Assembly: GCA_018060845.1 (NCBI GenBank)
Contig: JAGOVG010000002.1
Coordinates: 23,581-87,580, forward strand
Reading direction: 5' to 3'
DNA length: 64,000 nt
Origin: Candidatus Woesebacteria bacterium
Lineage (GTDB): Bacteria; Patescibacteriota; Microgenomatia; UBA1400; UBA12108
Shown: positions 15,476 to 50,841 of the stretch, piece by piece
Layout: each line of letters begins with the position of its first letter
How positions within the stretch are numbered: position 1 is the first letter of the stretch
Position numbers and translations under genes: made by a program
Notes under the pieces: generated by a model
What the model saw: only the letters and a program-made list of their open reading frames with translations
Databases searched by the model: none
What the model was told of the DNA's origin: nothing

Positions 15476-15482
15476 TACTTCT

Positions 15483-17291: not shown

Positions 17292-17293
17292 TT

Positions 17294-28108: not shown

Positions 28109-30342
28109 AAATCCTCTATATGGTCGACTACTATCAGCCGCAGATAGGGTACAACGAGTACTATCTCCCATCTGAGTGGTCGCGACTTGGCCATGATGTC
28201 ACAATCCTGACTTCTGATCACTACTATCCTTTTCCTAACTATGAGGAGACTGTAGGTAAACTGCTCGGTGCACGTCGTCAAAAACCAGGGATTTATAAGC
28301 AAGACAAGATCACGGTTATTAAAAAGCCCATGCAGTTTGAAGTCTTTACTAGAGCAGTATTCGGTGGTCATGAGTCAATAATTAACAAAATACGACCCGA
28401 CATTGTAATCGTAAATAAGTCATCTAGCTATAACTCATTCCAAGCAGCTAGGTTAAAAAAGAAATATCACTACAAATTAATCACATATGATGCCCATTTG
28501 ATGTCTGGGTACAACGCCGTCGGAAATGTTGCGTTCAAAGATTTTGTTTATTGGCTGTATCGCTTGACCATATCGAGATATATGAACAAGAGAGTAGACA
28601 AATACATCGCAGTGCAAGAAGGCACGGTTGATGTGATGATCAACTTGTATGGTCAAAAACCTGTAGAACACATACCGCTTGGTACCGATCCTGAGCGTTT
28701 TAGGTATGATATTGCAGCAAGGCGGGAAACAAGAAAAAAATATCAGATTCCGATCACTGCGAGCGTTGGGATATATACTGGCAAAATAATCCCTACTAAA
28801 GGCGTATCTATCTTATATGAGGCATTTGGTAGACTAGCCAAAAAAAATCCCAACCTACACCTCTTAATCGTTGGTTCAGGAGGTGCTGACTACATCAAAC
28901 AATGCGAAAGTCTAGTTGACTCAAAATATCTCAAGCGAATCCATCTAGTTGGATTTAAGGAAACCAAAGAGTTATACAAATTCTACTCAGCATCAGATTT
29001 TGGGATCTGGCCTCTAGAAGAATCTACTTCAATGAATGATGCTGCAGCGTGTGAAATACCCTTTATAGCTAACGACGAAGCCGGGGTGAAGCAAAGGTTC
29101 AAAAATGACAATGCGCTTAAATATCTGAGAGGTGATAGTAGAGACCTCTCAGTTAAAATGGAGTACCTAATTAACAACCCCAAGGAAGCTAAAAACATGG
29201 GAAAAAGGGGTAGAGAGTTAATTTTGAATGAGCTTAGTTGGAACAAGATCGCAAAGCAGTATTTATCTGTCATAAAGGGTGACGTAGAGCAAGACCTAAG
29301 TAAAACCCTTGATTGGCTAGAAGAAGCGCAGCGTGTAACTGGAGACGGAGGTGTGTCAGCATACCATATGATAATCAGAGGGTGGGCACCTTCTTTTATC
29401 GAAACGACTGGATATATTATATCGACGTTTCTAGATGCCGCTAAACATAAGAATAATAAAATATATCTTCGTCTCGCTATCAAGATGGGGGATTTCATTA
29501 TCAGCAATCAGCTAGGTAATGGTGGGTATCGAACTTATACCAAAGGGCATGTTGAATTATCTGAACCTACGATCTTTAACACAGCTCAAGACATTATTGG
29601 ATTAGTCGACCTATATCTTGTAACTAAAGACAAAAAGTATCTTAACTCAGCTCAGCTAGCCGGAGATTTTTTAGTTTCTTCTCAAAATCAGGATGGATCA
29701 TGGACTCAGTTTACCCATAATAGCGTGCCAAAAACATATCACTCACGAGTAGCTTATGCACTCCTAAAATTATATGAAATCAATCGCAAGTTAACATTTA
29801 AGAAAGCAGCGATAAAGCAGCTAGATTGGGTGCTATCAAGACAGCTAAAGAATGGTTTTGTCACTAATGCCGAGTTGCCAGTCGCTAAATATCCTTTTAC
29901 CATCACTCATACGATTGCGTATGTCGCCGAAGGATTGTTATACAGTGCAAAAATCTTAAAATCAAACAAATATCAAACAGCAGCTCTAAGAATTATTGAT
30001 AAAGTTCATCGGCACTATCTCTCATACAACGAACTCCCGTCATATTTTGATCAAAACTGGAAACCACAGGAGAAGTTTGGATGTCTGACTGGTGAAGCTC
30101 AGTTTGCGATCCTATTTATGGAGACGTACAAAATCAAGAACGATCAGTCTTATCTATCAAGCGCATACAACCTTATTAATAGAATAGGGGTAGACATGTC
30201 GGCTACGGGTGGTATCCCAGGTTCCAGACCAATATACGGAGATTTATTGCACAACCGGGGTTATTGTCGCTTATCTTATATCAACTGGGCAGCAAAGTTT
30301 ACCGCTGATGCCGAAATGTTATTCTTAAGTATATGGAAATAA
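28105..30342 (+). CDS. Bifunctional-looking protein: N-terminal GT4 glycosyltransferase fused to a C-terminal alpha/alpha-toroid (six-hairpin, QW-repeat-like) domain
   Basis: 745 aa. The GT4 region spans roughly residues 1-390. The C-terminal portion (about 350 aa) has repeated Q..(D/N)G(S/G)(W/Y) units (QNQDGSWTQ, NQLGNGGYRT, RQLKNGFVT) reminiscent of prenyltransferase/terpene-cyclase or AGE-type toroids. Confidence 0.55.
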   Translation: MKILYMVDYYQPQIGYNEYYLPSEWSRLGHDVTILTSDHYYPFPNYEETVGKLLGARRQKPGIYKQDKITVIKKPMQFEVFTRAVFGGHESIINKIRPDIVIVNKSSSYNSFQAARLKKKYHYKLITYDAHLMSGYNAVGNVAFKDFVYWLYRLTISRYMNKRVDKYIAVQEGTVDVMINLYGQKPVEHIPLGTDPERFRYDIAARRETRKKYQIPITASVGIYTGKIIPTKGVSILYEAFGRLAKKNPNLHLLIVGSGGADYIKQCESLVDSKYLKRIHLVGFKETKELYKFYSASDFGIWPLEESTSMNDAAACEIPFIANDEAGVKQRFKNDNALKYLRGDSRDLSVKMEYLINNPKEAKNMGKRGRELILNELSWNKIAKQYLSVIKGDVEQDLSKTLDWLEEAQRVTGDGGVSAYHMIIRGWAPSFIETTGYIISTFLDAAKHKNNKIYLRLAIKMGDFIISNQLGNGGYRTYTKGHVELSEPTIFNTAQDIIGLVDLYLVTKDKKYLNSAQLAGDFLVSSQNQDGSWTQFTHNSVPKTYHSRVAYALLKLYEINRKLTFKKAAIKQLDWVLSRQLKNGFVTNAELPVAKYPFTITHTIAYVAEGLLYSAKILKSNKYQTAALRIIDKVHRHYLSYNELPSYFDQNWKPQEKFGCLTGEAQFAILFMETYKIKNDQSYLSSAYNLINRIGVDMSATGGIPGSRPIYGDLLHNRGYCRLSYINWAAKFTADAEMLFLSIWK

Positions 30343-34656: not shown

Positions 34657-35640
34657 ATGGGAAAAATCTTAGTGACAGGCGGGTGTGGGTATATTGGTAG
34701 TCATGTTGTTTTGACACTCTCAAATGCAGGTGAATCAGTTATAGTTTTTGATAATCTCACGCAAGGTAGTAAATCAGCATTAATTAACGGTGGAGTCTTA
34801 GTTGAGGGTGATATCCGAGATAAAAATGCCTTGGCTCAAGTCATGAATAATAATGACATAGAAATAGTGATACACCTTGCTGCGCTCGTCAATGCCGCAG
34901 AGAGTGTCTCCAAGGCAGAACTCTACAACGAAGTCAACTCTACTGGTTCTAGAAATGTCTGGGAGTGCGCAATCAACGCTCAGGTCAAACATATTATTTA
35001 CGCAAGTTCTGCTGCAGTATACGGGACACCTGTAAATGGCGATCCTATCAAAGAATCCGCCGTAACTATACCTACTAACCCATATGGTGAGAGTAAGCTT
35101 GCAGGAGAAAAATATCTGATCGAGCTATCACCAGAAAAGTACAACTACTTATCCTTTAGATTTTTTAACGTTGGCGGAGCAGAGAGTCAGGGTAGGTTAG
35201 GTCAAAGTCTAGAGAGTAGGGCGATTATGCAGCGCTTGTATGCGCACGCGCTAAAATTAGACGATAGCGTGACAATCAGCGGCAACGACTATGATACTAC
35301 AGATGGTACGGTAGTTCGTGACTTTGTGCATGTCCAAGATATTGCAGATGCAATCATAAAAGGCATCAAATATCTTAGAGTTGGCAATAACTCCGCTGTA
35401 ATCAATCTTGGTGGCGGAGTCGCTCACTCTATCAAAGAAGTGATTAGTATAGTACAAGATCTCGTTGACCACCCCTTAAATATTATCTACGGTCCACGAA
35501 ATCCTGGGGATATCAGTTATTCTCTCGCAGATATTTCATTAGGCGCAAAAACACTAGGTTGGAGACCGACTAAAACCATCTTTGATATCGTTAGAGACGG
35601 GTACCAGAGCTTCAAAAATAGACAATCCAATAAGGCATAA
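34657..35640 (+). CDS. galE: UDP-glucose 4-epimerase
   Basis: MGKILVTGGCGYIGSHVV, YGESKLAGEKY (Y-x3-K), FRFFNVGGA are classic GalE features. Confidence 0.8.
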   Translation: MGKILVTGGCGYIGSHVVLTLSNAGESVIVFDNLTQGSKSALINGGVLVEGDIRDKNALAQVMNNNDIEIVIHLAALVNAAESVSKAELYNEVNSTGSRNVWECAINAQVKHIIYASSAAVYGTPVNGDPIKESAVTIPTNPYGESKLAGEKYLIELSPEKYNYLSFRFFNVGGAESQGRLGQSLESRAIMQRLYAHALKLDDSVTISGNDYDTTDGTVVRDFVHVQDIADAIIKGIKYLRVGNNSAVINLGGGVAHSIKEVISIVQDLVDHPLNIIYGPRNPGDISYSLADISLGAKTLGWRPTKTIFDIVRDGYQSFKNRQSNKA

Positions 35641-35645
35641 TTACT

Positions 35646-36371
35646 ATGCCAGTTTCATTTTTATCCTTAAATATCGAAGCCGATAGGCATCTAGATAAAG
35701 TTGTTAGTTATCTAGCAGCTAACATGCCCGACGTCGTCTTTTTGCAAGAAGTCTACAAAATCCATGCCGAGGAACTAGCTGCACAGTTTGAATACCAATT
35801 ATCCTTTGCTCCTCACGTCGACTTTAATATCTCCGAACACATCTTTAAACCACTCGGAGAGTGGGGTATCGCAACGCTAACCAAAATTAAACCTGTTAAT
35901 GTACAGCTAGATTACTACTCAGAGCATCCTGTCGTGATCCCCCATGAGTTTATGAAGACATTAAAGCATCCTCGGGCACTACTAGTCTCCGAGATAGTGA
36001 TCGAGGGTAAGAGCTACTTTTTTGCTAACACTCACTTTACCTGGGCTCTCACGACCGATGCCGATGTGGTACAGCTCCCAGATTATCAAAGACTGCAAAA
36101 GTTGCTAGACAAAATGCCGAGCTTTGTCCTCGCTGGCGACCTCAACACTAACCGGGGATCGAGGGTTTATCAGGAGCTCGCTAGTCGCTATATCGACCAG
36201 CTCCCAAGTGATGTTAAGTCTACTCTCGACCCCATCTTGTTTCGCAAACCAGAGCTAAAACTAGTGGTAGATCACCTCTTCTCGACCCCTGACTATCATA
36301 TGGAAAATGTTCAGGTTATAAGTGGTTTATCTGATCATTGTGGGATATCTTGCCAAATAACCAGAGTCTAA
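35646..36371 (+). CDS. Endonuclease/exonuclease/phosphatase (EEP) family protein
   Basis: LNIEAD, FLQEV, NTHF and C-terminal SDHCGISC (catalytic His) form the EEP fold motif set. Confidence 0.6.
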   Translation: MPVSFLSLNIEADRHLDKVVSYLAANMPDVVFLQEVYKIHAEELAAQFEYQLSFAPHVDFNISEHIFKPLGEWGIATLTKIKPVNVQLDYYSEHPVVIPHEFMKTLKHPRALLVSEIVIEGKSYFFANTHFTWALTTDADVVQLPDYQRLQKLLDKMPSFVLAGDLNTNRGSRVYQELASRYIDQLPSDVKSTLDPILFRKPELKLVVDHLFSTPDYHMENVQVISGLSDHCGISCQITRV

Positions 36372-36388
36372 TGATAAACTAACTGCAT

Positions 36389-37501
36389 ATGGATCCAGAA
36401 ATCAAACCTCTCTTACCAAAAGAACCACCAACCACTCCTATCCTACAGGTGGTGGGTGAAGTGTCACCTAGCACTAGCGGGGTAGAGTCAGTTATCGCAA
36501 AAAAACCAATCGCCAAGAAAACTCTTTATCTCTATATTGGTCTCGGCATCTCCGTCATGTTAGTCATCGGCTTAGTAGCATCAGCGCAGGCCAAGTTTGC
36601 CCGCTACCAAAATAGCCAAAAAGTAGCTGTGGTCACGCCATCTCCTACTCCCGCCGCCACGCCTACCGCTACCCCCGAGCCCACCGAGGAACCAACTCCC
36701 TCACCCTCAGTTAAGCCCTCGCCATCACCTTCGCCAAAACTATCGCCATCCCCCAAGCCCTCACTCTCTCCCTCACCTAGTCCAACTCCAGTGGTCGTCG
36801 TCGACAATACTTTTACCTGTGGTACCTACAGTGGTGATAGCTATCCCGCACTCCCCGCCTACGGCAAGACTCCTCTATACGCCACCCTCTACCCATCCGG
36901 TGGTACCTCCGGCGGGATTAGTCTCGCTGGATTTGAATGGGATTTTGATGGCGATGGTGTCTGGGAGGGTGGAGTCGCCAATAGTAAGGTCGGCCGCACT
37001 TTTGATAAGTCAGGGACAGTCACGCCAAAGTTCCGCGCCAAAGGCAACAATGGTGCCGTTGGTCCTACCTGTACCTACCCGTACCAGGTGGTCGCTGGCG
37101 GTAGCACGGCATTCGAGAATGATATTTTGATGGTAGATAAACTAAGTCTCGAAACAACAGTTAGCAAATCCAAGAACAATCATACTTTCACCGGGTCTCT
37201 CACCAAATTTAACAATGACAATAGCACCATCTATGTCCCATTTATCATTATCAGTACCAAAAAAGATAATAGAACGATAGTGACCACCTATACCAACAAT
37301 ACGGCCGGCGGCAATTATGGCGCGACCACAGGCAACCCTTACATGGATGCAGGTACTGCCTACTACACCCAGCTCTGGATCAGTAAGACAATAGCCAATG
37401 GTACGTATGATGGGACCATGAAGATCCAGTACAAAGATGCTGCAGGTGTAGTAGTCTCGGATGCAACCAACGCGACCTACAAAATTACTGTCACAGATTA
37501 A
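36389..37501 (+). CDS. Membrane-anchored surface protein: N-terminal TM, Pro/Thr/Ser-rich linker, PKD-like domain, Asn/Thr-rich beta domain
   Basis: [21 protein letters not shown]. Linker [64 protein letters not shown] (PKD WDFGDG-like). C-terminal region dense in N-x-T/S. Confidence 0.6.
36640..36790 (+). repeat. Low-complexity coding repeat (PT/SP dipeptide-like iterations) inside the 36389-37501 CDS
   Basis: Degenerate CCn-TCn/ACn iterations encode the PT/SP-rich linker. Such a tract is a potential length-variable region. Confidence 0.6.
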
Positions 37502-37548: not shown

Positions 37549-38148
37549 ATGGTAGTTAATCTATCTGAACGTGCTAGTGAGACAAAAAGAAAGATCGGTA
37601 GGAGTGTCTCGGTTAACGGGGTGCACGCAGTCGACGTAGACTTGATCAAAGCCGAAAATCTAAATGACCCCTTGCTAGATCTTAACATCAAAGTGAACAA
37701 TCCCATCGGGCGTCTGTGGTTAGCACTCAAGCGGATGTGGAAGAGCCAAAATACCGTGGTCGCTCTGCGCTTTACAATCCCCCTGATCGTTTTGCCCATT
37801 GCTCTCTATGTCGGGTATCGTCTGTGGCAGGGCAGGGGAGTGAGTACTCCGATGAGCAAGCTGGGGATTATCCACGAGGTTATTGTGACAGGCTCACCTA
37901 AAGATGTGTTGGTCTTGCCAACCAGTGATGTGTATATGCTGTCGTATGACCTTAGCTTTAACACGGCTCACAGGGTCACCGAGAAGCCGGTCATCGTGGT
38001 CGGTAGCTACAACCACCTAAATAACGAGCTATCCGTCCAGGACATCATCGCCTACAAACCCCTAGATATCCCGTCTACTCCCGTTAATCCAGCAGCACCA
38101 AAAGAGACTTGGGAGACTATTCTCCAGTTTATTTCGCAGTTTCGCTAG
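37549..38148 (+). CDS. Hypothetical single-pass membrane protein
   Basis: 199 aa. Charged N-terminus, TM TIPLIVLPIALYVGY, extracytoplasmic C-terminal domain. No recognised motif. Confidence 0.45.
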   Translation: MVVNLSERASETKRKIGRSVSVNGVHAVDVDLIKAENLNDPLLDLNIKVNNPIGRLWLALKRMWKSQNTVVALRFTIPLIVLPIALYVGYRLWQGRGVSTPMSKLGIIHEVIVTGSPKDVLVLPTSDVYMLSYDLSFNTAHRVTEKPVIVVGSYNHLNNELSVQDIIAYKPLDIPSTPVNPAAPKETWETILQFISQFR

Positions 38149-38168
38149 AGGTGTGAGACAATAGAGAT

Positions 38169-39446
38169 ATGTTATCTACTGTCTTAAAATTAGGCAAATC
38201 TAAAGGGTTAAAATCTGCTATCCTCATGACTATTGGCAACGTTGGTTCAACTGGTGTTGCTGCCGTTGCCATGATTATTTTTTCTAGACAACTTGGTCCT
38301 GAGCAATTTGGCATTTTCTCTGTGCTCTTTTCGCTTATGCTAATAATCTCTCGAATAGGAGATATGGGTATTAACATCGCAGTCTCTCGGGCTATCGCCC
38401 AAAATCAAGAGAACAAAACCCAGAGCCTCTCTTATGCTCAAAACGGATCCTACTTAAAAGCCATCATTATGGCAGCTGTAATAATGATTGGTCTGCTCAC
38501 TACTCCATTTATCACCGAGACACTCCTGAGTCTAACTCCTGATTTTTTGCCGATGGTACGAGCCGTCATAATACTTTCTACATCTGTGGTTGTCTACGAA
38601 TACATCAACTCTCTCCTTCAGGCTAGACAGTTCTTTGGTCTCTCAGTCTTAACCAACACAGTTCAATCTTCACTCAAGCTACTCTTGGCGCTTGCGACAT
38701 TAGTCTTTGCAGGAATTAACTTAAACACTATCACCCTAGGATACATGATCTTGCCACTTATCGGAGCAAGTGTTGGCTTTATGGCAATAAATGTGCGCGA
38801 GCTCTTGCCTAGCTATAATCCAAAAATCACAAAATCGATACTAAATGTGGTTCGATGGACCAGTATCTCTATCCTAGCTAGTGCTGTCGCCGAGAATGTC
38901 GATGTTTTAATCGTCCAGAACTATCTCTCAGCTCATGAGACAGGACTTTATGCAGCCGCAACTAGGATTGCGACTGTTGCTTCGCTAATCGGTTGGTCGC
39001 TCGGTACGGTCCTAAACATGCGAGTTGCAAAATATAAAGACAAAGTAAACCTTGATCGCTACCTAAAAAAAGGCATCATGCTCGCTATCGTTTCGCTCCT
39101 TGCGACTATCGCTCTCTGTTTTATTTCGTACCCTATTGTTACATATACTATCGGGTCAGCCTACCTGAGCGTCATCCCAACCTTAAATATTCTATTAATA
39201 TCTACCGCCTTCTTAACAGCCACTACACCGTTTGTTGCTTTGTTTTATGTCTTTGATTACCCAAGATATTTTGCAGTCTCTGGGATTATCACGGCACTTA
39301 GCTTGCTCATCTCTGACATAATCTTGATACCTTCCTACGGGTTAATCGGTGCAGGGTGGGCGAGAGTGATCACTAGACTAGTAGTCGGTATCTATACTTT
39401 ATATATTGCTTACACCCTATACCAAAAGACCTATGGCAAAAAGTAA
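38169..39446 (+). CDS. Polysaccharide/oligosaccharide flippase, MOP superfamily (Wzx-like)
   Basis: 425 aa with about 12 TM helices. Organisation is typical of Wzx/RfbX flippases and it sits inside a GT cluster. Confidence 0.6.
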   Translation: MLSTVLKLGKSKGLKSAILMTIGNVGSTGVAAVAMIIFSRQLGPEQFGIFSVLFSLMLIISRIGDMGINIAVSRAIAQNQENKTQSLSYAQNGSYLKAIIMAAVIMIGLLTTPFITETLLSLTPDFLPMVRAVIILSTSVVVYEYINSLLQARQFFGLSVLTNTVQSSLKLLLALATLVFAGINLNTITLGYMILPLIGASVGFMAINVRELLPSYNPKITKSILNVVRWTSISILASAVAENVDVLIVQNYLSAHETGLYAAATRIATVASLIGWSLGTVLNMRVAKYKDKVNLDRYLKKGIMLAIVSLLATIALCFISYPIVTYTIGSAYLSVIPTLNILLISTAFLTATTPFVALFYVFDYPRYFAVSGIITALSLLISDIILIPSYGLIGAGWARVITRLVVGIYTLYIAYTLYQKTYGKK

Positions 39447-40239
39447 AATCACCGTTCACATGATGGTCAAAAACGAGGACCAATGGGTCAGATATAGCCT
39501 GCTCTCGATCCTCCCTTATGTTGATATAGTTCTCGTGACAGATACAGGTAGTACAGATCACACGATCGAAGCAATCAAGTCTATCGATTCCCCCAAAATC
39601 AAGTTAACAATCTCACGTGCCGCAACTTCTATGGACGTCACTCGCATCCGTGAGGATCAAATAAATAACACAAAATCAGATTGGTTTTGGGTAGTCGATG
39701 GGGACGAAGTCTATCCAGAAAAAACAGCACGCGAAGTAGTTGCTGCAATTAACACAAATAAATTTGAAGGGATCACTGTCCGACGCTATGACCTACTAGG
39801 TGATATTTATCATCGTCAAAACGAAAGTGTCGGTACCTACAAAATGTGGGGTACTAGTGGTCACCTAGTGCTCAGATCACTCAATAAAAGCAAACTCAAT
39901 GGGCTACATTTGCGTGGTGGTTACCCAAACGAAGGTTACTATGACAGTAGCGGAATCGCAATTATCGATCACGACCCTGCTCTGCACTATATCACTGACA
40001 ATTACCTCTACCATGCAATGTACCTGAAAAGAAGTAGTTTAGGCGGTAATCTGGATATGTTTAATCGTTCAAAAAACAAAATCGAACTAGGGATTCCACT
40101 GGACTCTAACCCGCCTAACGTTTTTGACTCTGCACCTCTTCCATGGGAAAAAGACCCAAAAAAAAGTAGGTCTCTCACTTATCTAATACTTGCATCTCTG
40201 ATTACTCCGATCAAGTATCTCAAACGTAAAATTATATGA
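39433..40239 (+). CDS. GT2-like glycosyltransferase
   Basis: ITVHMMVKNEDQWVRYSLLSILPYVDIVLVTDTGSTDHT and VVDGDEVY (DxD). First ATG is 39433; the track start 39406 is a TTG. Confidence 0.55.
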   Translation: MAKSKITVHMMVKNEDQWVRYSLLSILPYVDIVLVTDTGSTDHTIEAIKSIDSPKIKLTISRAATSMDVTRIREDQINNTKSDWFWVVDGDEVYPEKTAREVVAAINTNKFEGITVRRYDLLGDIYHRQNESVGTYKMWGTSGHLVLRSLNKSKLNGLHLRGGYPNEGYYDSSGIAIIDHDPALHYITDNYLYHAMYLKRSSLGGNLDMFNRSKNKIELGIPLDSNPPNVFDSAPLPWEKDPKKSRSLTYLILASLITPIKYLKRKII

Positions 40240-41300
40240 AGATACTCTTTCTCAATCTTACTCAGGGGTTGGTAGATCGAGGTCTCGAGCGTGTTGTTGA
40301 TCTATATGCCCATGCACTCTCAAAAAATAATCAAGTGACGGTAGTTCAAGCAGGTCCTGTTAAACCAGAAAAAACATATCAAACTATTCGTAGCCTGAAG
40401 CTGGAGTCTGCTCCTCAGGCCGCTCCCTATAATATCTTCGAAAAACTATTATTTAGACTTGAGTGCGACCCAGCTAGTGTCGCTGCTCTCAACTTTACCA
40501 AAGCATCACTTAGATCAATCAAGACAGTTAACCCAGACATTGTAATCGCATGTAACGGCGCACCTCAAATAAAAATACTAAAGAGAGAGTTGTCTTCTCC
40601 GAAAATAGTGGCATTTGGTCAAGCAGGTATGGGTCACCATGATCTCAAGACTTTGCTTACAAAACCAGATCTCTTTATTGCTTTAACCGATGCACAAGCT
40701 ATCTGGTGCAAAAAATACGCAAGACCATCGACTAAGCTAGTAGTTATCCCTAATCCAGTCGACATTTCTAAAGTTTCAAAAAAGATCGATCTCAAACTGC
40801 CTCGCCCAGTAGTCCTAACTGTCGGCGCACTCTCCCACTACAAAAACATCACCAGAATTGCCAAAACTCTAAAATCGCTCCCTCTCACTCATATAATTAT
40901 TGGTGATGGTGAGGAGCGCAGTGTATTACAAGACATACTATCTGAGCGCAGATATGACTTTCGCTGGATAAAACATGTCAGCCCAGATGAGATTTCTGCC
41001 TACTACCGCTATAGTGATGTGTTTTGCTTTACTCCAGACCCAAGAGAAGCTTTTGGGAATGTCTATATCGAGGCTATGGCAGCAGGACTGCCCATTATCG
41101 CAACAGACGATCCCATTAGACGTGAGATCATAGGCAGTTTAGGATATTACGTAGACCACAACGATGATCAAAGTATCCGTTCAGCAGTCATAAAAGCCGC
41201 CGAAGCTGGTAGGGTTGACTATTCCTCACAGCTAAGCAGATACAATATTAAGGTAGTCTCTAAGCTATTAGAAAAAGAACTCTATGACCTCATCAAGTAA
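40236..41300 (+). CDS. GT4 family glycosyltransferase
   Basis: EAFGNVYIEAMAAGLPIIATDD GT4 block. ATGA overlap. Confidence 0.65.
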   Translation: MKILFLNLTQGLVDRGLERVVDLYAHALSKNNQVTVVQAGPVKPEKTYQTIRSLKLESAPQAAPYNIFEKLLFRLECDPASVAALNFTKASLRSIKTVNPDIVIACNGAPQIKILKRELSSPKIVAFGQAGMGHHDLKTLLTKPDLFIALTDAQAIWCKKYARPSTKLVVIPNPVDISKVSKKIDLKLPRPVVLTVGALSHYKNITRIAKTLKSLPLTHIIIGDGEERSVLQDILSERRYDFRWIKHVSPDEISAYYRYSDVFCFTPDPREAFGNVYIEAMAAGLPIIATDDPIRREIIGSLGYYVDHNDDQSIRSAVIKAAEAGRVDYSSQLSRYNIKVVSKLLEKELYDLIK

Positions 41301-42175: not shown

Positions 42176-43522
42176 ATGGTTTACATCCTAGGGCTCGCAC
42201 TTATTCTAAGACTAGTGTTAATCAACCAATCACTTTGGTTAGACGAGGCGATCGAGGCACTCGCCCTGATGGGGCGCATGGGGCCGCTGCTTACATATGC
42301 CCTCGCAGACTTTCAGCCGCCCTTCTACCATCTCATTGGTTGGCTCTGGACTAGTATGGCTGGCTACAGCGAATTAGCCCTCCGCACACCATCGCTCCTA
42401 GCTGGTCTAGGTATCGTCTACTTTGCTGCCAGACTAGGTAAAGAGTTTGGAGGCAAAAAGATAATGTATCTAGCTGGACTACTAACAGCCACCAACCCGC
42501 TCCTTATTTATTACTCTCAAGAGGGTAGGACATATGGTCTAACCACTTTTTTTGTTACTGCCGCTATCTACTATTTCTACAAGGTACTTACCAATCCCAA
42601 AAACAAACTATTTACTATTTACTATGTACTATTCACCGTCGCGTTCCTCTGGACCTCCTACCTCTCCTGGTTCCTCCATCTTGCACTCTTTGTCTATGCG
42701 CTATTCCTCAGGCGCCGTGACCTAATAATATCTCAGATTCTAGCTGGTCTAACACTTATTTTTTGGTTACCATCACTCATCAGTTCGCTCGGTATAGGGC
42801 TCAGCACGGTCGCAAGTAGTCCAGAGTGGGGGAGCATTGTGGGTGGGATATCGCTCAAGGCTCTAGCTCTCACCTGGGTCAAAGCCAATATTGGCAGGAT
42901 AAGCATAGAAAGCGATCTCTTATATGGCACAGTTGCAGTCTCCCTACTCTCACTTCATATATTTGTCTTGTCCAGGGTCAAACTCAAGTCGTATCTCTCA
43001 AACAAAAACTACCAACTCCTCTTGGTCTGGCTCTCGGCCGTCCCAATCGCTGCGGCCGCCTCCCTCATTCTCCCTGTCTATAGCTACACTCGTATCATGT
43101 TTGTAGTCCCAGCATATTTACTAGTATTAGCACTAGCTCTATCACACACTAGGCTCCGATATGCTGCACTCATTATTTCACTTCAGCTACTCTCACTCGG
43201 CTACTTTTGGGTCAATCCTGAGTTTCATCGAGAGGGCTGGCGAGAAGTTGTTAGAGATCACGGCCGAGGTGCTACCTATGCGCTCCCTAGTCGTGCGCAG
43301 AACGCGCCTTTACTATACTATGGTGTGCCACGTTCCCAGATTATCGAACCAAAAACAAATGTAGAACTAAAGTCAAAGAGCATTATTTATATAAAATATG
43401 CCGAAGAAGTTTTTGACTCGTCGCATGTAGGGGGGAATAACCTAATCGAGGCAGGCTATACGCTCGGGAGTCAAAAAGTGTATCCTGGATTACAGTTAGA
43501 TTTATATGAAAATAACAATTGA
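42176..43522 (+). CDS. Polytopic membrane glycosyltransferase, GT-C fold (PMT/ArnT-like)
   Basis: 448 aa. LWLDEAIEALAL loop-1 motif. Multi-TM. Confidence 0.6.
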   Translation: MVYILGLALILRLVLINQSLWLDEAIEALALMGRMGPLLTYALADFQPPFYHLIGWLWTSMAGYSELALRTPSLLAGLGIVYFAARLGKEFGGKKIMYLAGLLTATNPLLIYYSQEGRTYGLTTFFVTAAIYYFYKVLTNPKNKLFTIYYVLFTVAFLWTSYLSWFLHLALFVYALFLRRRDLIISQILAGLTLIFWLPSLISSLGIGLSTVASSPEWGSIVGGISLKALALTWVKANIGRISIESDLLYGTVAVSLLSLHIFVLSRVKLKSYLSNKNYQLLLVWLSAVPIAAAASLILPVYSYTRIMFVVPAYLLVLALALSHTRLRYAALIISLQLLSLGYFWVNPEFHREGWREVVRDHGRGATYALPSRAQNAPLLYYGVPRSQIIEPKTNVELKSKSIIYIKYAEEVFDSSHVGGNNLIEAGYTLGSQKVYPGLQLDLYENNN

Positions 43523-44594
43523 CGTCTCTCAGATGGCTTATTCGGGTACTGGCGTAGGTCGCTATACCTTTGAGCTAGTCAAAGCTCTACTAAGTTTACC
43601 CTCTAGGCACGAGTTCATCCTCTGGGCTGGGGTGCGCAAACAGCGCTTTTATTTTGAGGCACTCCAAAAAACTGCGCCTTGGAATAAAGCGACCTGGGTC
43701 TATTCTCACCTTTCACCTAAGCTAGCGGGAGTGCTCTTTAATTATTCTCCACTGCATCTAGAGTATCTTAGCGGTGAGACAGATCTCATCCATCTCTCAG
43801 ACTGGACTGCTCCTGTTACTCGTGTACCAACAGTCACGACCATTCATGACCTGGCTTACGCCAAATATCCAGAGACTGTTCATCCTCTTATTAGACACAC
43901 TCAATCACTTAGACTCTCTCGGATCGTCAAACACGGCAACCATATTATTGCAGACTCACTGAGTACAAAAAATGATCTCATCGAAAAATATCAACTACTA
44001 GACTCACAAATAGACGTTGTTTATCCAGGTCTAAGTCAGGAATATTTCCCTCAATCAGAGTTAGAAATTGAACGAGTGAAAACTAAATATAACTTGCCTA
44101 ATAAATTTGTCCTTAGCCTTGGTACTCAGGAACCACGCAAAAATCTAGAACGTCTTATCCAAGCTACAGCTGGTCTGTCGATCCCTCTCGTCATCGCTGG
44201 TAAATACGGTTGGGGCAAAAAGATCGAAAACCCGTCACATGTAACTGTGCTCGGTTTTGTAGACGAAGCTGATCTACCTGCACTCTATAGTAGTGCGACG
44301 GTTTTTTGCTACCCATCACTATATGAAGGGTTTGGTTTCCCCGTGCTCGAAGCTATGGCCTGCGGCACCCCGGTCGTGACCAGTAATATTAGCTCACTCC
44401 CCGAGGTGACGGGTGAGGCAGCTGTCTTAGTAGACCCATTAAATATAGAGTCTATTAGGTCTGGTATTGAGCAAGTAATAGATTCAAGTGAAAACATGAC
44501 CACAAAAGGTATTCGACATGCCAAAATGTTTAGTTGGGAAGTAACTGCTAGACAAGTTATGACAATCTATGAAAAGCTAGGTAATAAGAAATAG
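43506..44594 (+). CDS. GT4 family glycosyltransferase
   Basis: MKITIDVSQ..GVGRYT N-terminus. EGFGFPVLEAMACGTPVVTSNISSLPEV. Confidence 0.8.
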   Translation: MKITIDVSQMAYSGTGVGRYTFELVKALLSLPSRHEFILWAGVRKQRFYFEALQKTAPWNKATWVYSHLSPKLAGVLFNYSPLHLEYLSGETDLIHLSDWTAPVTRVPTVTTIHDLAYAKYPETVHPLIRHTQSLRLSRIVKHGNHIIADSLSTKNDLIEKYQLLDSQIDVVYPGLSQEYFPQSELEIERVKTKYNLPNKFVLSLGTQEPRKNLERLIQATAGLSIPLVIAGKYGWGKKIENPSHVTVLGFVDEADLPALYSSATVFCYPSLYEGFGFPVLEAMACGTPVVTSNISSLPEVTGEAAVLVDPLNIESIRSGIEQVIDSSENMTTKGIRHAKMFSWEVTARQVMTIYEKLGNKK

Positions 44595-44601
44595 GTACTT
44601 T

Positions 44602-45711
44602 ATGACTCAAAAAATTGGTATCGATGTTAACGAGGCAAACGTTGGTAGTAGGGTAGGTACTGGACAATATACTTATCATATCCTCAAGAGATTAAAAGAC
44701 ATTTCACCTCAGACTGATTTTCATCTTTACCACCGTGATCGACTGGTCTCGGATATGCCCACAGAGGGTTCCAACTGGCATTACCATCATGTTGGCCCAG
44801 CACGTGTATGGCTCAGGCTAGGTCTCCCACTAAATCTCTTTATCACCCGCGCCCACTATGACTCGTTCTGGTCACCCGCCCACAATGCTCCATACTATGT
44901 TGGTAGTCCGTCGGTAGTCACGATTCATGACCTCGCGTATGAGTACTTTCCTGATTTATTTCTTAAGAGCGATCTCTACAAACTAAAAAACTGGACTCGT
45001 ACAGCAGTCAAGGCTGCGGCTCGTGTGATCGCAGTTTCTCAGGCCACCAAAGACGATCTGGTTAAGCTGTATGGTACCGACCCCAACAAAATCACAGTCA
45101 TTCACAATGGCTACGACTCAGATATTTTTAATACTAAAACAAAAATCAAATCTTCACATCTAGATAACTTTAACCTTGTCCCTTTCAACTATCTTCTCTT
45201 CCTCGGTACCATCCAGCCTCGCAAAAACGCTATCAAGCTAGTTCAAGCTTTTCGACTCCTCAAAGAAAAGGGGTACAAAGGCAAGTTGGTTTTGGCCGGC
45301 AAAATAGGATGGATGTCAGAAGAGTCGCTGCAGGTTATTAAAAACTCGCAGGATGCCAAAGATATTGTCATGACAGACTACGTTAGCGACGAGACGCGCC
45401 TCGCACTATATCGTGGCGCCGACGTCTATGTCCTACCGTCTCTTTACGAAGGGTTTGGAGTGCCAGCAATCGAAGCAATGGGTTGCGGAGCACCGGTTGC
45501 AGTCTCAAACAATAGCAGTCTCCCCGAAGTAGTTGGAGATGCTGGGGTATTGTTTGACGAGCGCGACCCAGCAGATATCTCAAGGGCAATTATGGAGCTC
45601 AAAAAAGACCGTGATACCTGGTCCAAAAAATCTCTAAATCGAGCCAAACAATTCTCCTGGGACAAATGTGCCAAGGAAACTCTCGATGTATTACTAGGAA
45701 AACAAATATGA
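44602..45711 (+). CDS. GT4 family glycosyltransferase
   Basis: EGFGVPAIEAMGCGAPVAVSNNSSLPEV. Paralog of the 43506 gene. Confidence 0.8.
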   Translation: MTQKIGIDVNEANVGSRVGTGQYTYHILKRLKDISPQTDFHLYHRDRLVSDMPTEGSNWHYHHVGPARVWLRLGLPLNLFITRAHYDSFWSPAHNAPYYVGSPSVVTIHDLAYEYFPDLFLKSDLYKLKNWTRTAVKAAARVIAVSQATKDDLVKLYGTDPNKITVIHNGYDSDIFNTKTKIKSSHLDNFNLVPFNYLLFLGTIQPRKNAIKLVQAFRLLKEKGYKGKLVLAGKIGWMSEESLQVIKNSQDAKDIVMTDYVSDETRLALYRGADVYVLPSLYEGFGVPAIEAMGCGAPVAVSNNSSLPEVVGDAGVLFDERDPADISRAIMELKKDRDTWSKKSLNRAKQFSWDKCAKETLDVLLGKQI

Positions 45712-46214
45712 TTAACTGCACATTTGAAAACGGCAACGTTGCACTCCCAGGTATTAGGCACGTCACTACCTCTAACATTATTTTGAATGATAAGAATCAG
45801 GTAATAATGTGTTTGCGAGGTTCAAAAAATGGCATACCAATACTAGAGAGCGGAAAATGGGGACTACTAGGTGGCTTTGTAGATCGTGACGAAACTGTCT
45901 CTGAATCAGTTAGACGTGAGGTAATGGAAGAATCTGGCTGGACGATTGATGATGTATCCTTATTCTGCATTAACGATAACCCCAACCGTCCCAAAGAAGA
46001 TCGCCAGAATATCGATTTTGTCTATATTGCCCGGGTAGTTAGTCAAAAAGAAGTTATCGACGAAGAAGTCAGAGAACTCCGCTGGTTTGATCTAGACAAG
46101 TTGCCGCCCGATGACCAGATCGCCTTTGACCACTCACTCGCACTAAAGCTATACAAAAAGCATCTAAAAAATCCTCTCGTCCTACCCATCTTTGGGTATG
46201 GTGCGCTAGAATAG
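45708..46214 (+). CDS. NUDIX hydrolase (nucleotide-sugar/GDP-mannose hydrolase-like)
   Basis: GGFVDRDETVSESVRREVMEESG is a Nudix box (G-x5-E-x7-REuxEExGu). ATG 45708 forms ATGA with the upstream stop. The track start at 45666 lies inside the upstream gene. Confidence 0.7.
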   Translation: MINCTFENGNVALPGIRHVTTSNIILNDKNQVIMCLRGSKNGIPILESGKWGLLGGFVDRDETVSESVRREVMEESGWTIDDVSLFCINDNPNRPKEDRQNIDFVYIARVVSQKEVIDEEVRELRWFDLDKLPPDDQIAFDHSLALKLYKKHLKNPLVLPIFGYGALE

Positions 46215-46218
46215 ACAT

Positions 46219-46827
46219 ATGAACTTCCCCCTCAAAGACAAACACGGCAAGAGTTATACCTGGAGCGAGGCCTTTTTTGGCAAGGCAATCCCGAGACTCG
46301 AGTCGTATCTCCTCGACTTTACACTCATGTGCTTGGATGTAACTACTCACATCCCCAGCCATACTCTCCGTAACTTTATCTGGCGCAGTGTCGGGATTAA
46401 GATGGGTGCTAACTCCACACTCCATACAGGCGTCAGGGTATACGACCCTCGCAATATCAAGATCGGGGAGGGGACTATCATCGGCCGCGGTGTCTTTATC
46501 GATGGCAGAGATATGGTAACTATCGGCAGTCACACCAGCATCGCGAGCGAGGTCATGATCTATAGCAGTGAACATGATCTAGCTGCTACTGATTTTCGCG
46601 CAGTTAGTGAGCCAGTCAAAATCGGCGACTACGTCTTTATCGGCCCACGAGCGATCATCCTCCCAGGTGTCAGTATCGCTGATCGCGCTGTTGTTGGAGC
46701 TGGAGCAGTCGTCACCAAAGATGTCATGGAGGGCGAGATAGTAGGTGGTGTCCCTGCAAAACTAATTGGAGAGCGCAAACTAAAGAAAGCCAACTATCGC
46801 CTAGGTCGCTTTAAACTATTCCAATGA
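46219..46827 (+). CDS. Sugar O-acetyltransferase, left-handed beta-helix (hexapeptide-repeat) family (WbbJ/WcaF/LacA-like)
   Basis: Repeating [LIV]-G-x-x-x-x hexapeptides (IGEGTIIGRGVFIDG, IGDYVFIGPRAIILPGVSIADRAVVGAGAVV). Confidence 0.75.
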   Translation: MNFPLKDKHGKSYTWSEAFFGKAIPRLESYLLDFTLMCLDVTTHIPSHTLRNFIWRSVGIKMGANSTLHTGVRVYDPRNIKIGEGTIIGRGVFIDGRDMVTIGSHTSIASEVMIYSSEHDLAATDFRAVSEPVKIGDYVFIGPRAIILPGVSIADRAVVGAGAVVTKDVMEGEIVGGVPAKLIGERKLKKANYRLGRFKLFQ

Positions 46828-47756
46828 ACAAATTAGTCTCAATCATTATTGTCTCCTACAACACAGCTAATCTGACTCAAAAATGCGTAAAACATGCACT
46901 TGCGAGCTCGGGAATAGATGCAGGCCAGCTCGAAATAATCGTCGTCGATAATAATAGTAGCGACAATACCATCCAGCTTCTCAAAAAATCTTATCCAGAT
47001 ATAAAAATAATTAGTAGCCCCAAAAATCTCGGCTTTGGTGGCGGCAACAACCTCGGTGCTAAACATGCTACAGGGGAGTATGTTCTCCTCCTCAATACCG
47101 ACGCCTTCCTCAATCCGGGTTCACTCTCCGAACTCGTAACCGTGTTGGACAAAAACAAATCTATCCTAGCTGTCGCCCCCAAATTGACGTACGAAGATGG
47201 TCAAATACAGCAGTCAGTCGGTTACTTTCCAACACTTGCTAGGGTTGTGGGCTGGATGTGGGGACTAGACAAGTTACCAGGGATCAAGCTCCTATTCCCG
47301 ACTCCATACCACTTTTATGACGTATCCAAATATAACAAAGATCTCTCCCCAGATTGGCTAATGGGTGCCTGTGTCCTTGTGCGTAAAGACGCATATCTCA
47401 GTGTGGCTGGGTTCGATGAGAAAATCTTTATGTACGGCGAAGAAGTCGAGCTATTTTACCGCTTAAAAAAGAAGCATCCTGATCAATTTGTGCGTCTTGT
47501 CACGTCTGTATCTGTTACCCACCTAGGCTCATATAGCTCAAATGCCGCAAATACTTCTAGACTATTGTCAGAGCTCGACGGTATTATCACTTTTTATAAT
47601 CTGCATTTCCCGAGCCTTACATGGGTGATTAAATGGGTCATTAATCTCGGGGTAATCATGCGGATTATTATCTTTAGTCTAATCCCAGCAAAGCGGAGTA
47701 GTGCAGGGCAATACCTTAGCTATCTTGGACAAGCCAAGCAGAGCCGGGTACAATAA
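46824..47756 (+). CDS. GT2 family glycosyltransferase
   Basis: VSIIIVSYNTANL, IIVVDNNSSDNT, FGGGNNLGAK, LLNTDAF. Confidence 0.75.
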   Translation: MNKLVSIIIVSYNTANLTQKCVKHALASSGIDAGQLEIIVVDNNSSDNTIQLLKKSYPDIKIISSPKNLGFGGGNNLGAKHATGEYVLLLNTDAFLNPGSLSELVTVLDKNKSILAVAPKLTYEDGQIQQSVGYFPTLARVVGWMWGLDKLPGIKLLFPTPYHFYDVSKYNKDLSPDWLMGACVLVRKDAYLSVAGFDEKIFMYGEEVELFYRLKKKHPDQFVRLVTSVSVTHLGSYSSNAANTSRLLSELDGIITFYNLHFPSLTWVIKWVINLGVIMRIIIFSLIPAKRSSAGQYLSYLGQAKQSRVQ

Positions 47757-47761
47757 ACGCT

Positions 47762-49426
47762 ATGCGGCGCATCTTAGCCTGGTTAGACAACAATCTCCTT
47801 ACACTCCTGACTGGTTTTTTGATTGTTTTTATTCCACTATATCCAAAGATCCCGATGGCCGAGCTCATCCAGGGTTATATCGTGCGCATGCGACTCGAAG
47901 ATTTAGTAGTTATGGCAACGAGTATACTCTGGCTTGTCCAGCTCCTGAGGCGCCGGGTAAGTTTGCCTAAAAATTACCTCACCGTCACGATCCTCGCGTA
48001 TCTTGGTTTTGCGCTCTTATCTGTCCTCTCGTCCCTCTTTATTACCGAATCAACTCCTCTAGAGAAAGCGCATGTTCTCAAGCTAATCCTCCATTACTTT
48101 AGGCGTATCGAGTATTTTGCTCTATTCTTTATTACCTATAGCGCGATCAGGACCAAAAAAGATCTAAATCTATTCTTAAAAGTCGCTCTTATCACAACTG
48201 TTGGTATCGTGCTCTACGGGATCGGTCAAAAATACTTTTACTTTCCCGCATTCTCTACCATGAACAGGGAGTTTAGCAAAGGTGTGAGACTTTATCTCCA
48301 GCCCAATACTCGGCTCTTTAGTACCTTTGGTGGTCACTATGACCTAGCTGGGTACTTAACCATCGCCTTGAGTTTCGTCCTCCCCGCCGCTTATTTGGCC
48401 AAGCAAAAACTCGCGAAGTTTGGCTTCTATACTCTCTCTGTGATCGCCTACTGGTGTTTGGTCTTAACTACCTCACGTACCTCATTCATTGGCTATCTTG
48501 TAGGCACCACTATTATTTGTTATCTATTAGTCAAATATCGTGGCTGGTGGTGGAGCATACGGCACTACATCCTCACTATGTTTATGAGTCTGCTAATCAT
48601 GTTTAGCTTTAGTACGCTCCTTGAGCGCTTTACCCAGGTTATTCCTGACCAAAAAACCCGTGATACTATCCTCACTCTCCAAAAAATAATCAATCAGCCA
48701 TTTGTCAGTGAGCCTCAAGGTAAAGATACAGTTGCAGAATTGCCTAGTCTCTTCGCGTTTATTTTTAACAACAAACAACTCAAAACCATTGATCTAACCG
48801 ATGCCGAAAAAACTCAGCTCGATATAGTCGCCTCTAGTTCCGATATGCCACCAAGTCCAGTCAAGCCTACACCGACCCCTCGCTCTGATCTCCCGACCGA
48901 TGTAAGCGATGAGTCTGAGGCTATTAGAGTCCAAACCGCAGAAGATGAGGGGCGGGAGTATACAGGACCACAATATAGCGCCAACGCCCTCAAATACGGA
49001 CTATCCATGGGTATTAGACTAGACGTTCTCTGGCCTAACGCCATCCGAGGTTTTATGACCAACCCACTCCTCGGTACCGGGTATGCGACACTGGTTAAGA
49101 GCAATGTAGGTGAGTTTACTTATGCCGAGAGTACAGACAATGACTATCTACGAATGCTGGGGGAGACTGGGATACTAGGTACTATCGCCTTCCTCTCAAC
49201 TATCTATCTAGTAATCAAATATAGCTACCAAATACTCAAAACAAATAATGACAAGGTAGACCTCCTGGCGCTCGGCGCAATCGGGGCCACTGTCGCACTC
49301 CTAGTGACCGCTACCTACATCGACATTTTTGAGAGCAGCAAAGTAGCCTATACGTACTGGATGCTAGCCGGCATGGTAGCTTACCGCTACGACAACTTAG
49401 CGAGTGTTAAGGATAAAAAGAAATGA
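47762..49426 (+). CDS. O-antigen ligase/polymerase-like (Wzy_C domain) membrane protein with Pro-rich periplasmic insert
   Basis: 554 aa, multi-TM. LTTSRTSFIGYLVG resembles the Wzy_C core. Insert DMPPSPVKPTPTPRSDLPTD. Confidence 0.5.
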   Translation: MRRILAWLDNNLLTLLTGFLIVFIPLYPKIPMAELIQGYIVRMRLEDLVVMATSILWLVQLLRRRVSLPKNYLTVTILAYLGFALLSVLSSLFITESTPLEKAHVLKLILHYFRRIEYFALFFITYSAIRTKKDLNLFLKVALITTVGIVLYGIGQKYFYFPAFSTMNREFSKGVRLYLQPNTRLFSTFGGHYDLAGYLTIALSFVLPAAYLAKQKLAKFGFYTLSVIAYWCLVLTTSRTSFIGYLVGTTIICYLLVKYRGWWWSIRHYILTMFMSLLIMFSFSTLLERFTQVIPDQKTRDTILTLQKIINQPFVSEPQGKDTVAELPSLFAFIFNNKQLKTIDLTDAEKTQLDIVASSSDMPPSPVKPTPTPRSDLPTDVSDESEAIRVQTAEDEGREYTGPQYSANALKYGLSMGIRLDVLWPNAIRGFMTNPLLGTGYATLVKSNVGEFTYAESTDNDYLRMLGETGILGTIAFLSTIYLVIKYSYQILKTNNDKVDLLALGAIGATVALLVTATYIDIFESSKVAYTYWMLAGMVAYRYDNLASVKDKKK

Positions 49427-50841
49427 AAAAATTTAACTTAATTATAATCTTCGTCATCATGGCACTCGGGGCTGCACTCCGACTATACCGACTAGACGCC
49501 CCTCTAGCCGACTGGCATAGTTGGCGACAGACTGATACAGCTAGCGTCGCCCGGGAATATGTAAAAAATGGTATAGACCTAATGCACCCCACTTACCATG
49601 ATCTTAGTAGCATCCCATCGGGGTTAGATAATCCAAATGGCTACCGCTTTGTTGAGTTCCCGATCATAAGTGCTCTCCATGCTACACTCGCCAAAAACTA
49701 TCCTGCACTCAGTCTTGTAGAGTGGGGTAGATTTCTCTCAGTGATAGCTTCTTCGATCTCAATAGGCTTGATCTATCTAATCATGAAGACCGTTAGTGGC
49801 AACTTAGCTGCCATGGTTGCAGCCCTGGTCTATGCCACACTCCCTTACAATATTTTTTATGGTCGTGTCATCCTACCCGAGCCACATCTTGTCTTATTTA
49901 TGCTTACTGCCCTGTATGCCTTTATTCGCTATTACGAAACGGGCAAAATAATCTCTCTCATTTTCTACACTATCACCATGACCCTAGCGGTACTTATGAA
50001 ACCGACAGCACTAGTAGTAGCGATCCCAATCGCGCTTTATGGACTATTTGGAACTAAAGTTAATTTGAAGAGGTTGGGAGTAGTTGCCTTAGTGAGTGCT
50101 CTTTCAGTCTTGCCTTATGCATGGTGGCGCAGCTACGTGGCTAGCTATCCCGCTGGTATCCCCGCTAACGCTTGGCTATTTAATGGTAATGGGATTAGGT
50201 TCAAAGGAGCCTGGCTCCGCTGGCTCTTTGGCGATCGCATCGGTCGCCTAATCATGGGCTACTGGGGTATGATCCCGCTTGGTTTTGGGCTGTTGGCCAT
50301 AGGTCAAAAAAAGTCTGAGACCACGATTGTTGGCGGCCTCGCACTCGCTAGTCTCATATATATGACTGTTATCGCAACTGGCAATGTTCAGCACGATTAC
50401 TATCAGATCCAGATCATCCCGAGCTTGGCCATGCTGATCGGGGTCGGTGTTAGCTACGTCTATACTCTTCGCAAAACATTATTATCAAAGATAACTTTAA
50501 CCTTTTTACTTGTCCCTTGTTACTTAATTGCTCTCGCTCTCGGTTGGTACGAAGTCAGGGGTTACTTTAATATCAATAACCCAGCCATCGTGGCTGCAGG
50601 AGAGCGGATCGATGCAATCACAAATGCCGATGCCAAAGTCATCGCTCCTTACATGGGCGATACAGCATTTCTTTTTCAGACAAACCGGACTGGCTGGCCG
50701 ATCGGTGGGGATATAGATCTAAAGATAAAATCAGGTGCTAGTTATTATGTAACCACGACTCGGGACGCCGAATACCAGGAGCTAAAAAAGAAATACACTT
50801 TAGTCGAAGAAACCGATCAGTACAGCATAATTAAGCTATGA
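49423..50841 (+). CDS. Polytopic membrane glycosyltransferase, GT-C fold (ArnT-like, GT83/GT39-type)
   Basis: 472 aa. DWHSWRQTDTASVAREY loop. About 11 TM helices. ATGA overlap. Confidence 0.6.
   Translation: MKKFNLIIIFVIMALGAALRLYRLDAPLADWHSWRQTDTASVAREYVKNGIDLMHPTYHDLSSIPSGLDNPNGYRFVEFPIISALHATLAKNYPALSLVEWGRFLSVIASSISIGLIYLIMKTVSGNLAAMVAALVYATLPYNIFYGRVILPEPHLVLFMLTALYAFIRYYETGKIISLIFYTITMTLAVLMKPTALVVAIPIALYGLFGTKVNLKRLGVVALVSALSVLPYAWWRSYVASYPAGIPANAWLFNGNGIRFKGAWLRWLFGDRIGRLIMGYWGMIPLGFGLLAIGQKKSETTIVGGLALASLIYMTVIATGNVQHDYYQIQIIPSLAMLIGVGVSYVYTLRKTLLSKITLTFLLVPCYLIALALGWYEVRGYFNINNPAIVAAGERIDAITNADAKVIAPYMGDTAFLFQTNRTGWPIGGDIDLKIKSGASYYVTTTRDAEYQELKKKYTLVEETDQYSIIKL

Follow-up and report, generated by a model that had tools for sequence, protein, structure and literature searches.

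Precedents exist for genes of O-glycosylated proteins that are located beside genes of GT-C glycosyltransferases. The S. mutans adhesin gene cnm shares a transcript with pgfS-pgfM1-pgfE-pgfM2 (PMC5856776). In streptococci, pairs of GT-A and GT-C enzymes glycosylate membrane proteins at disordered, Ser/Thr-rich regions outside the cytoplasm, thereby protecting these regions against proteolysis (PMC12041528). Secreted C. bescii proteins that contain Pro/Thr linkers depend for their glycosylation on a GT39 enzyme (Cbes_1864), which is encoded near celA (PMC6151902).

The gene considered here (36389-37501, forward strand) is part of a 64-kb stretch of patescibacterial DNA that was analyzed as a whole and is referred to as the window. 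The likeness to the Cnm/Pgf system, in which the Thr/Ser-rich region of a binding protein is co-encoded with a GT-A enzyme, a UDP-hexose 4-epimerase and GT-C membrane proteins of the PMT family and is O-glycosylated by them outside the membrane, is seen in an epimerase gene two genes upstream and in GT2 and PMT_2 genes within 6 kb. However, Cnm is anchored C-terminally to the cell wall by an LPXTG motif and consists of N domains that bind collagen and a Thr-rich B region made of repeats, whereas the window protein has a predicted N-terminal TM anchor, a non-repetitive Pro-rich stalk and a head of PKD and Ig-like domains. Moreover, the window locus is ten times larger and contains a full Wzx/Wzy pathway. 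As in the GT39/CelA system of C. bescii, where Pro/Thr/Ser linkers between extracellular modules are the acceptors and a polyprenyl-phosphate-sugar-dependent GT-C is encoded near an acceptor gene, the window has matches to both PMT (PF02366) and PMT_2. By contrast, the acceptors in C. bescii are secreted multidomain glycoside hydrolases, while the window protein is predicted to be membrane-anchored and non-enzymatic. Actinobacterial Pmt is a further example of GT39/PMT-dependent O-glycosylation of Pro/Thr linkers.

For the head, the PKD domains of the collagenases ColH and ColG (PDB 9lqj, 4jgu, 4u6t, 4aqo, 2y72) and the PKD_4 family (PF18911) provide the comparison, since they belong to the same family at profile level and share the WDF(D)GDG loop and the β-sandwich. 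The window copy differs in being single, too divergent for the Pfam HMMs, extended at its N-terminus and furnished with a family-specific Cys pair, and its fusion partner is not a catalytic domain but a second sandwich that is unclassified. Within the same lineage, PKD/Ig membrane proteins of Patescibacteria, among them the giant surface proteins of Vampirococcus, were proposed as host-attachment factors (PMC10936435; PMC8080830). These have the same domain types and predicted membrane or surface location as the window protein, but they are other proteins, some of more than 1000 aa and some highly expressed enzymes, for which attachment is itself a proposal, and none is reported inside a glycan locus (PMC10936435; PMC8080830). 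Literature searches that combined Patescibacteria with glycosylation, S-layer or GT-C returned nothing relevant.

The Surrounding Glycan Locus

The glycan locus spans ~59 kb, with nearly all genes from the start of the window to ~59.4 kb being co-directional and assigned to glycan synthesis. It encodes a priming Bac_transf enzyme (56755-57414), a mannose-1-phosphate guanylyltransferase-like enzyme, a UDP-GlcNAc 2-epimerase, two NAD-dependent epimerases, methyltransferases, an acetyltransferase, ~20 GT2/GT4 glycosyltransferases, a Wzx flippase and a Wzy_C protein. Judged by this gene content, the locus is predicted to specify a complete Wzx/Wzy-type polysaccharide pathway, for which a protein acceptor would not be needed.

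The description of the locus as GT-C-rich in the original prediction agrees with at least eight GT-C-type multi-pass paralogs (1581-3008, 4834-6180, 7078-8730, 13703-15475, 15417-17291, 17186-18919, 42176-43522, and 49423-50841), to which a DUF2079 protein (20700-22079) is added. Five of the paralogs have Pfam matches to PMT_2 or PMT, and the other three are tied by BLAST to the paralogs starting at 7078 and 17186. For a single locus this GT-C set is unusually large. Most of the PMT-family matches in the window involve PMT_2, a broad model that includes lipid- and glycan-modifying enzymes as well, and with PMT/PMT_2 in five window genes and GT2 genes also present, the acceptor could be a protein, a glycan or a lipid. 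An NCBIfam scan of the window GT-C proteins did not separate protein-acting from glycan-acting enzymes, and no acceptor could be assigned to them. When the Wzy_C protein and the two multi-TM proteins encoded upstream were compared with PDB sequences, no matches were obtained.

The immediate neighbors are all encoded on the forward strand. The upstream context (34657..36371) consists of a NAD-dependent sugar epimerase (34657-35640) and, directly before the gene, a protein of the endonuclease/exonuclease/phosphatase (EEP) family (35646-36371), whereas the downstream context (37549..39446) consists of a 199-aa single-TM protein (37549-38148), which has no Pfam or NCBIfam match, and a Wzx-type flippase (38169-39446). 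The gene is separated from the EEP gene by 17 nt and from the 199-aa gene by 47 nt, and neither gap contains a convincing promoter or terminator, so that its embedding in the glycan locus, as originally claimed, is borne out by co-directional neighbors and short gaps. The nearest candidates for a membrane enzyme that modifies proteins or glycans (42176..50841, forward strand) are a PMT_2 GT-C (42176-43522) and a PMT/PMT_2 GT-C (49423-50841), together with the Wzy_C protein (47762-49426), whose Pfam model is named “O-Antigen ligase”; the intervening genes include those for GT4/GT2, NUDIX and acetyltransferase proteins.

Further features of the locus include a 745-aa fusion (28105-30342) of a GT4 with a C-terminal domain, which is conserved in the homologous loci L001 and L002. 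This domain has weak matches to D-glucuronyl C5-epimerase, pectate lyase, GH127 and LanC-like proteins, families that we take to be α/α-toroids. The glycan locus is closed by a 671-aa single-TM DUF4012 protein (57357-59372), directly after Bac_transf. No tRNA or Rfam features were found in the window. The GC3 content is mosaic, with values of 0.34-0.43 in the blocks 13703-35640 and 38169-41300 and mostly 0.44-0.55 both in the glycan genes on either side and in the housekeeping genes near the window end (RecO, 59418-59930; class II aaRS, 60205-61590). With 0.51, and 0.59 for the 199-aa neighbor (the window maximum), the two genes form “core-like” islands between low-GC cassettes, and the mosaic suggests an exchange of cassettes within the locus.

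Architecture of the Stalked Protein

The open reading frame 36389..37501 is a complete coding sequence for 370 aa plus stop, with an ATG start. Nine homologs from metagenome assemblies have 355-376 aa, can be aligned end to end and are 62-97% identical over the C-terminal module. In comparison with the L001 homolog (86% identical), the PKD domain has a dN/dS of 0.055, the stalk one of 0.17 and the N-terminal tail one of 0.28, while synonymous sites are close to saturation, and the ORF is a genuine gene under purifying selection. The 86%-identical homolog is present in the sequencing runs SRR28520277-86. Conservation is highest in the first C-terminal domain and declines from there to the second domain, the stalk, the TM segment and the tail. 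Direct Pfam and NCBIfam scans of the 370-aa protein returned only low-complexity noise, including a Pro-rich match to TonB that was discarded at 22 bits compared to a cut-off of 315.

The N-terminal tail (aa 1-44; 36389..36520, forward strand) is Pro/Lys-rich, predicted to be cytoplasmic and the fastest-diverging part of the protein, with 14-95% identity among homologs. It ends in the basic KKPIAKK, which precedes the sole hydrophobic segment of the protein (aa 45-68; 36521..36592, forward strand; Kyte-Doolittle 19-mer mean up to 2.33). Hydropathy thus points to one N-terminal TM helix or signal anchor, as was originally proposed. The basic flank, as well as the position of a Cys pair and the PKD domain C-terminal to the segment, lead us to infer an N-in/C-out (type II) topology. 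At the end of the segment an A-Q-A motif is found, so that cleavage by signal peptidase is possible and the protein could be released instead of anchored. A different N-terminus is seen in the distant relatives P0020, P0022, P0023, P0064 and P0071 (e.g. L037 8001-8942), where M..[QK][RK]GF[AV]P followed by a hydrophobic run replaces the long tail; it resembles a prepilin/class III signal (G|F) but without Glu at +5.

The stalk comprises aa 82-135 (36632..36793, forward strand), C-terminal to the TM segment and adjoining the folded domain, and is a Ser/Thr-rich region that is predicted to be extracytoplasmic, making it the candidate region for O-glycosylation and a putative wall-spanning spacer. 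It is 54 aa long with 74% P+S+T (37% P, 22% S, 15% T) and its coding DNA has 62% GC; the string quoted in the original prediction for a Pro/Thr/Ser linker of ~50 residues is found verbatim and placed here. No other stretch in the window, in any ORF with a length of 100 aa or more, reaches 60% P+S+T over 30 aa. The DNA at 36640-36790 had also been described as repeat-encoding and possibly length-variable. A tandem array was not found, since Tandem Repeats Finder reported nothing at a score of 30 and the stalk DNA contains only one pair of 10-nt direct repeats, whereas the variation in length was seen when linkers were compared among the homologs, with stalks of 46-60 aa that differ mainly by gain or loss of SPSVKP-like units.

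The stalk is followed by a divergent PKD domain (aa 136-240, core aa 152-225; 36794..37108, forward strand), an assignment based on hhalign, the family profile and an AlphaFold (AF2) model. The PKD loop motif W184-D-F-D-G-D-G190 is part of a 13-residue stretch (aa 182-194) that is invariant in 10 homologs. The search for PKD with PF00801 and PF18911 returned no match at E<=10 for the single protein sequence, and the relatives P0010 and P0014 have only sub-threshold Pfam matches (PKD_4, E 0.008; PKD, E 0.004). The miss is attributed to the sensitivity of the HMMs and is not considered a true negative, because profile comparisons connect the domain to genuine PKD repeats. When a profile built from the C-terminal module was used in an exhaustive hmmsearch, 1148 proteins were retrieved at E<=1e-3, of which ~15 are short (~300-475 aa) and covered over the whole module, while most of the other matches listed are large proteins matched 5-17 times at profile positions ~17-90 only. 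All five multi-repeat proteins that were scanned (P0013, P0040, P0077, P0078, P0141) are assigned to PKD_4 by Pfam, with E-values down to 1e-155. With a local HMM of the first domain, most of the repeats in P0077, P0078 and P0141 score 36-53 bits, and the last repeat in P0141, which is truncated, scores 28 bits. A comparison with aligned PKD_4 stretches, as delimited by Pfam, in hhalign yields a probability of 99.0% and an E-value of 5.8e-18 over 74 columns (aa 152-225), and the family profile matches the crystal structures of the ColH and ColG PKD domains with E-values from 1.4e-11 (ColH) to 4e-3. The AF2 model obtained from a 21-sequence alignment, which was used instead of one with 10 close homologs (pLDDT 61), has a pLDDT of 92.7, and the domain is a β-sandwich of ~80-90 residues with the WDFGDG loop. 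The PKD-like claim of the original prediction is thus upheld by profile-level homology, but not by the curated Pfam HMMs.

The PKD domain is bracketed by Cys144 and Cys228, the only two Cys of the C-terminal 235 residues and nearly invariant among 21 sequences with 28-97% identity. They probably form a disulfide, which in turn would place the head outside the cytoplasm. The D-F-D-G-D-G loop (aa 185-190; 36941-36958) is invariant in the 9 close homologs, whereas its middle Asp positions vary in distant members, and it is common to the retrieved multi-PKD proteins. The loop fits the DxDxDG consensus for calcium binding, and a dependence on Ca2+ is possible.

Residues 241-244 link the PKD domain to a C-terminal Ig-like β-sandwich (aa 245-370; 37121..37498, forward strand), for which no Pfam family was found and whose HMM matches none of the multi-PKD proteins tested, P0077, P0078 and P0141 included. 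The protein stops exactly at the conserved last strand (...YKITVTD), and an LPXTG sorting motif is absent from this C-terminus (...ATYKITVTD). Membership in the LPXTG/SRRP adhesin class was rejected based on the missing motif and on a stalk of 54 aa with non-repetitive DNA, compared to Ser-rich repeats that are hundreds of residues long. Searches of PDB and viral structures returned generic tandem Ig-like matches only, among which there was no enzyme fold and no standout carbohydrate-binding module, so that the head consists of a PKD domain and, C-terminal to it, an Ig-like sandwich of unclassified type. Taken together, the originally proposed structural reading of an N-terminal anchor, a PT/PS stalk, a PKD domain and a further β-domain displayed on the surface is supported.

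Distribution and Gene Neighborhoods of the Family

Homologs with at least 62% identity are found in three distinct gene arrangements, all of which are sugar loci. The order EEP, target, 199-aa gene, Wzx is seen in the window and in L001-L004, the order Fic, target, 143-aa gene, DegT, Wzx in L005, and the order target, epimerase, DUF2142 in L006. Outside the close clade (L001-L004), the 199-aa gene is not conserved behind the target; it has no similarity to the 143-aa gene that takes this position in L005, and was dismissed as a companion of the family. A gene with a Fic domain adjoins family members in two independent and otherwise different neighborhoods (L005 2030-2920; L007 6132-7175).

By contrast, relatives with 29-44% identity lie outside glycan loci. 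A relative from Patescibacteria UBA1372 (44%) is encoded between a C39-like peptidase and a Fic gene, and one from a Woesebacteria MAG (31%) near LytR_C and carotenoid genes, while other distant relatives are flanked by infB and rpsO/pnp, adjoin a LysM gene or have unknown genes around them. An association with the glycan pathway is thus not a general property of the family. Among the species-representative genomes searched, the UBA1372 and Woesebacteria proteins are the only two-domain relatives, and all are from Patescibacteria, on which basis the window probably belongs to this lineage as well. The protein is a lineage-restricted representative of a familiar class, the PT-stalked, PKD-bearing surface proteins.

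Possible Roles of the Stalk and the Head

The reading that we prefer, with a probability of roughly 0.6, is a membrane-anchored, stalked surface protein that is adhesin-like or glycan-binding and whose stalk is plausibly O-glycosylated. The short cytoplasmic tail and the single TM helix would anchor the protein in the membrane with the N-terminus inside and the C-terminus outside. The stalk is probably extended, reaching up to ~16 nm if it is polyproline-II-like, and would carry the two-domain head through the wall. The head itself, a PKD domain that is probably stapled by the disulfide and then an Ig sandwich that may be of the PapD/ASH/MSP type, most likely acts by binding, either to the surface of a host or partner cell or to the polysaccharide from the surrounding locus. 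Such a role is suggested by the lack of a catalytic fold and fits the usual roles of PKD/Ig modules, as well as the host-attachment proposals published for Patescibacteria (PMC10936435; PMC8080830). Outside the membrane, the stalk would probably be O-glycosylated by a polyprenyl-phosphate-sugar-dependent GT-C of the locus or by the Wzy_C protein, and the modification would add stiffness and protection from proteases.

By analogy with the described systems, it is plausible that the stalk is a substrate for O-glycosylation. This is favored by its Ser/Thr/Pro-rich composition and predicted extracytoplasmic location, by the tight, co-directional placement of the gene amid PMT/PMT_2 GT-C and Wzy_C genes, by the sugar loci that surround the homologs in all three arrangements (at least 62% identity), and by the precedents of substrate genes beside those for GT-C O-glycosylation. 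It is weakened by the relatives with 29-44% identity in unrelated neighborhoods, and by the fact that a Wzx/Wzy pathway with GT-C enzymes decorating the side chains could explain the locus fully. A stronger version, in which the glycan of the locus has this protein as its dedicated acceptor, encoded in cis and with a mucin-like stalk, and in which the glycosylated stalk and the PKD/Ig head mediate attachment to the host, is considered unlikely.

The protein could also serve the glycan pathway as an accessory and not as a substrate, namely as a membrane-tethered, lectin-like part that binds the nascent polysaccharide after Wzx/Wzy export and either holds the glycan on the cell or acts as a scaffold for chain length or export, the stalk being a mere spacer. 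PKD domains often serve as polymer-binding modules in secreted hydrolases, and the match of the family profile to the PKD domains of the collagenases ColH and ColG, together with a head that has no enzyme fold, agrees with this possibility, as does the position of the gene directly between sugar-nucleotide genes and Wzx, which is comparable to the order in L005 (target-X-DegT-Wzx). However, the distant relatives in housekeeping or unrelated contexts show that the family is not an obligate part of the pathway, Pfam and NCBIfam reveal no similarity of the Wzz/PCP, LCP or Wza type, and carbohydrate-binding modules are not prominent among the structural matches, so that such an accessory function is doubtful.

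Alternatively, an ordinary lineage-specific surface or secreted protein may have come to lie in the glycan locus by chance, with an unglycosylated stalk as spacer and perhaps with release after cleavage at ASAQA|KF. Indeed, all family members combine a TM segment, a T/S/P-rich linker and the same module in any context, the GC3 of 0.51 (0.59 for the 199-aa neighbor) is housekeeping-like and unlike that of the adjacent low-GC cassettes (0.34-0.42), and an AXA motif follows the hydrophobic segment. Nevertheless, the hydrophobic core has 20-23 residues and is long for a cleaved signal peptide, the sugar-gene context is retained in three arrangements at 62-86% identity, and the genes are packed tightly and co-directionally with no terminator or promoter signal. 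Furthermore, in every case where a GT-C system for such regions has been studied, the disordered, Ser/Thr-rich parts outside the cytoplasm carry glycans (PMC12041528; PMC6151902). A chance placement of this kind is accordingly rated as improbable.

Thr, Gly, Asn and Tyr abound in the C-terminal 235 residues, and the β-domain had been described as packed with N-x-T/S triplets. All six triplets exist in aa 264-361 (NHT264, NST278, NRT294, NNT303, NGT337, NAT361), but they are not enriched, since composition-matched shuffles contain 3.1-3.5 (p = 0.05-0.12), and their use as an argument for glycosylation in the original prediction is not sustained. N-glycosylation of this domain is very improbable, because, although N264, N303 and N337 are retained in most close homologs, the wider family does not maintain the sequons, which are missing or altered there, position -2 is occupied by K, N, K, Y, I and A, with none of the six being the D/E that PglB-type enzymes require, and no STT3/PglB comes near threshold among the window ORFs scanned (best 19 bits compared to a cut-off of 450).

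Implications for the Surface of Patescibacteria

Patescibacteria are tiny and mostly uncultured and apparently live attached to other cells, with the choice of host being ascribed to their surfaces. Almost nothing is known about their surface glycoconjugates, despite very large glycosyltransferase loci. The stalked protein is predicted to be the only non-enzymatic, surface-displayed product of its glycan locus, and its small size, the confident in silico fold and the defined Ser/Thr/Pro stalk make it a practical test substrate for orphan GT-C enzymes. If the stalk is not glycosylated, the protein would be one more lineage-specific PKD surface protein. If it is glycosylated, a function would be assigned to some of the orphan PMT_2 enzymes of the phylum, and should the protein be a dedicated glycan acceptor, the Candidate Phyla Radiation would gain its first protein-glycosylation system for which a substrate is known.
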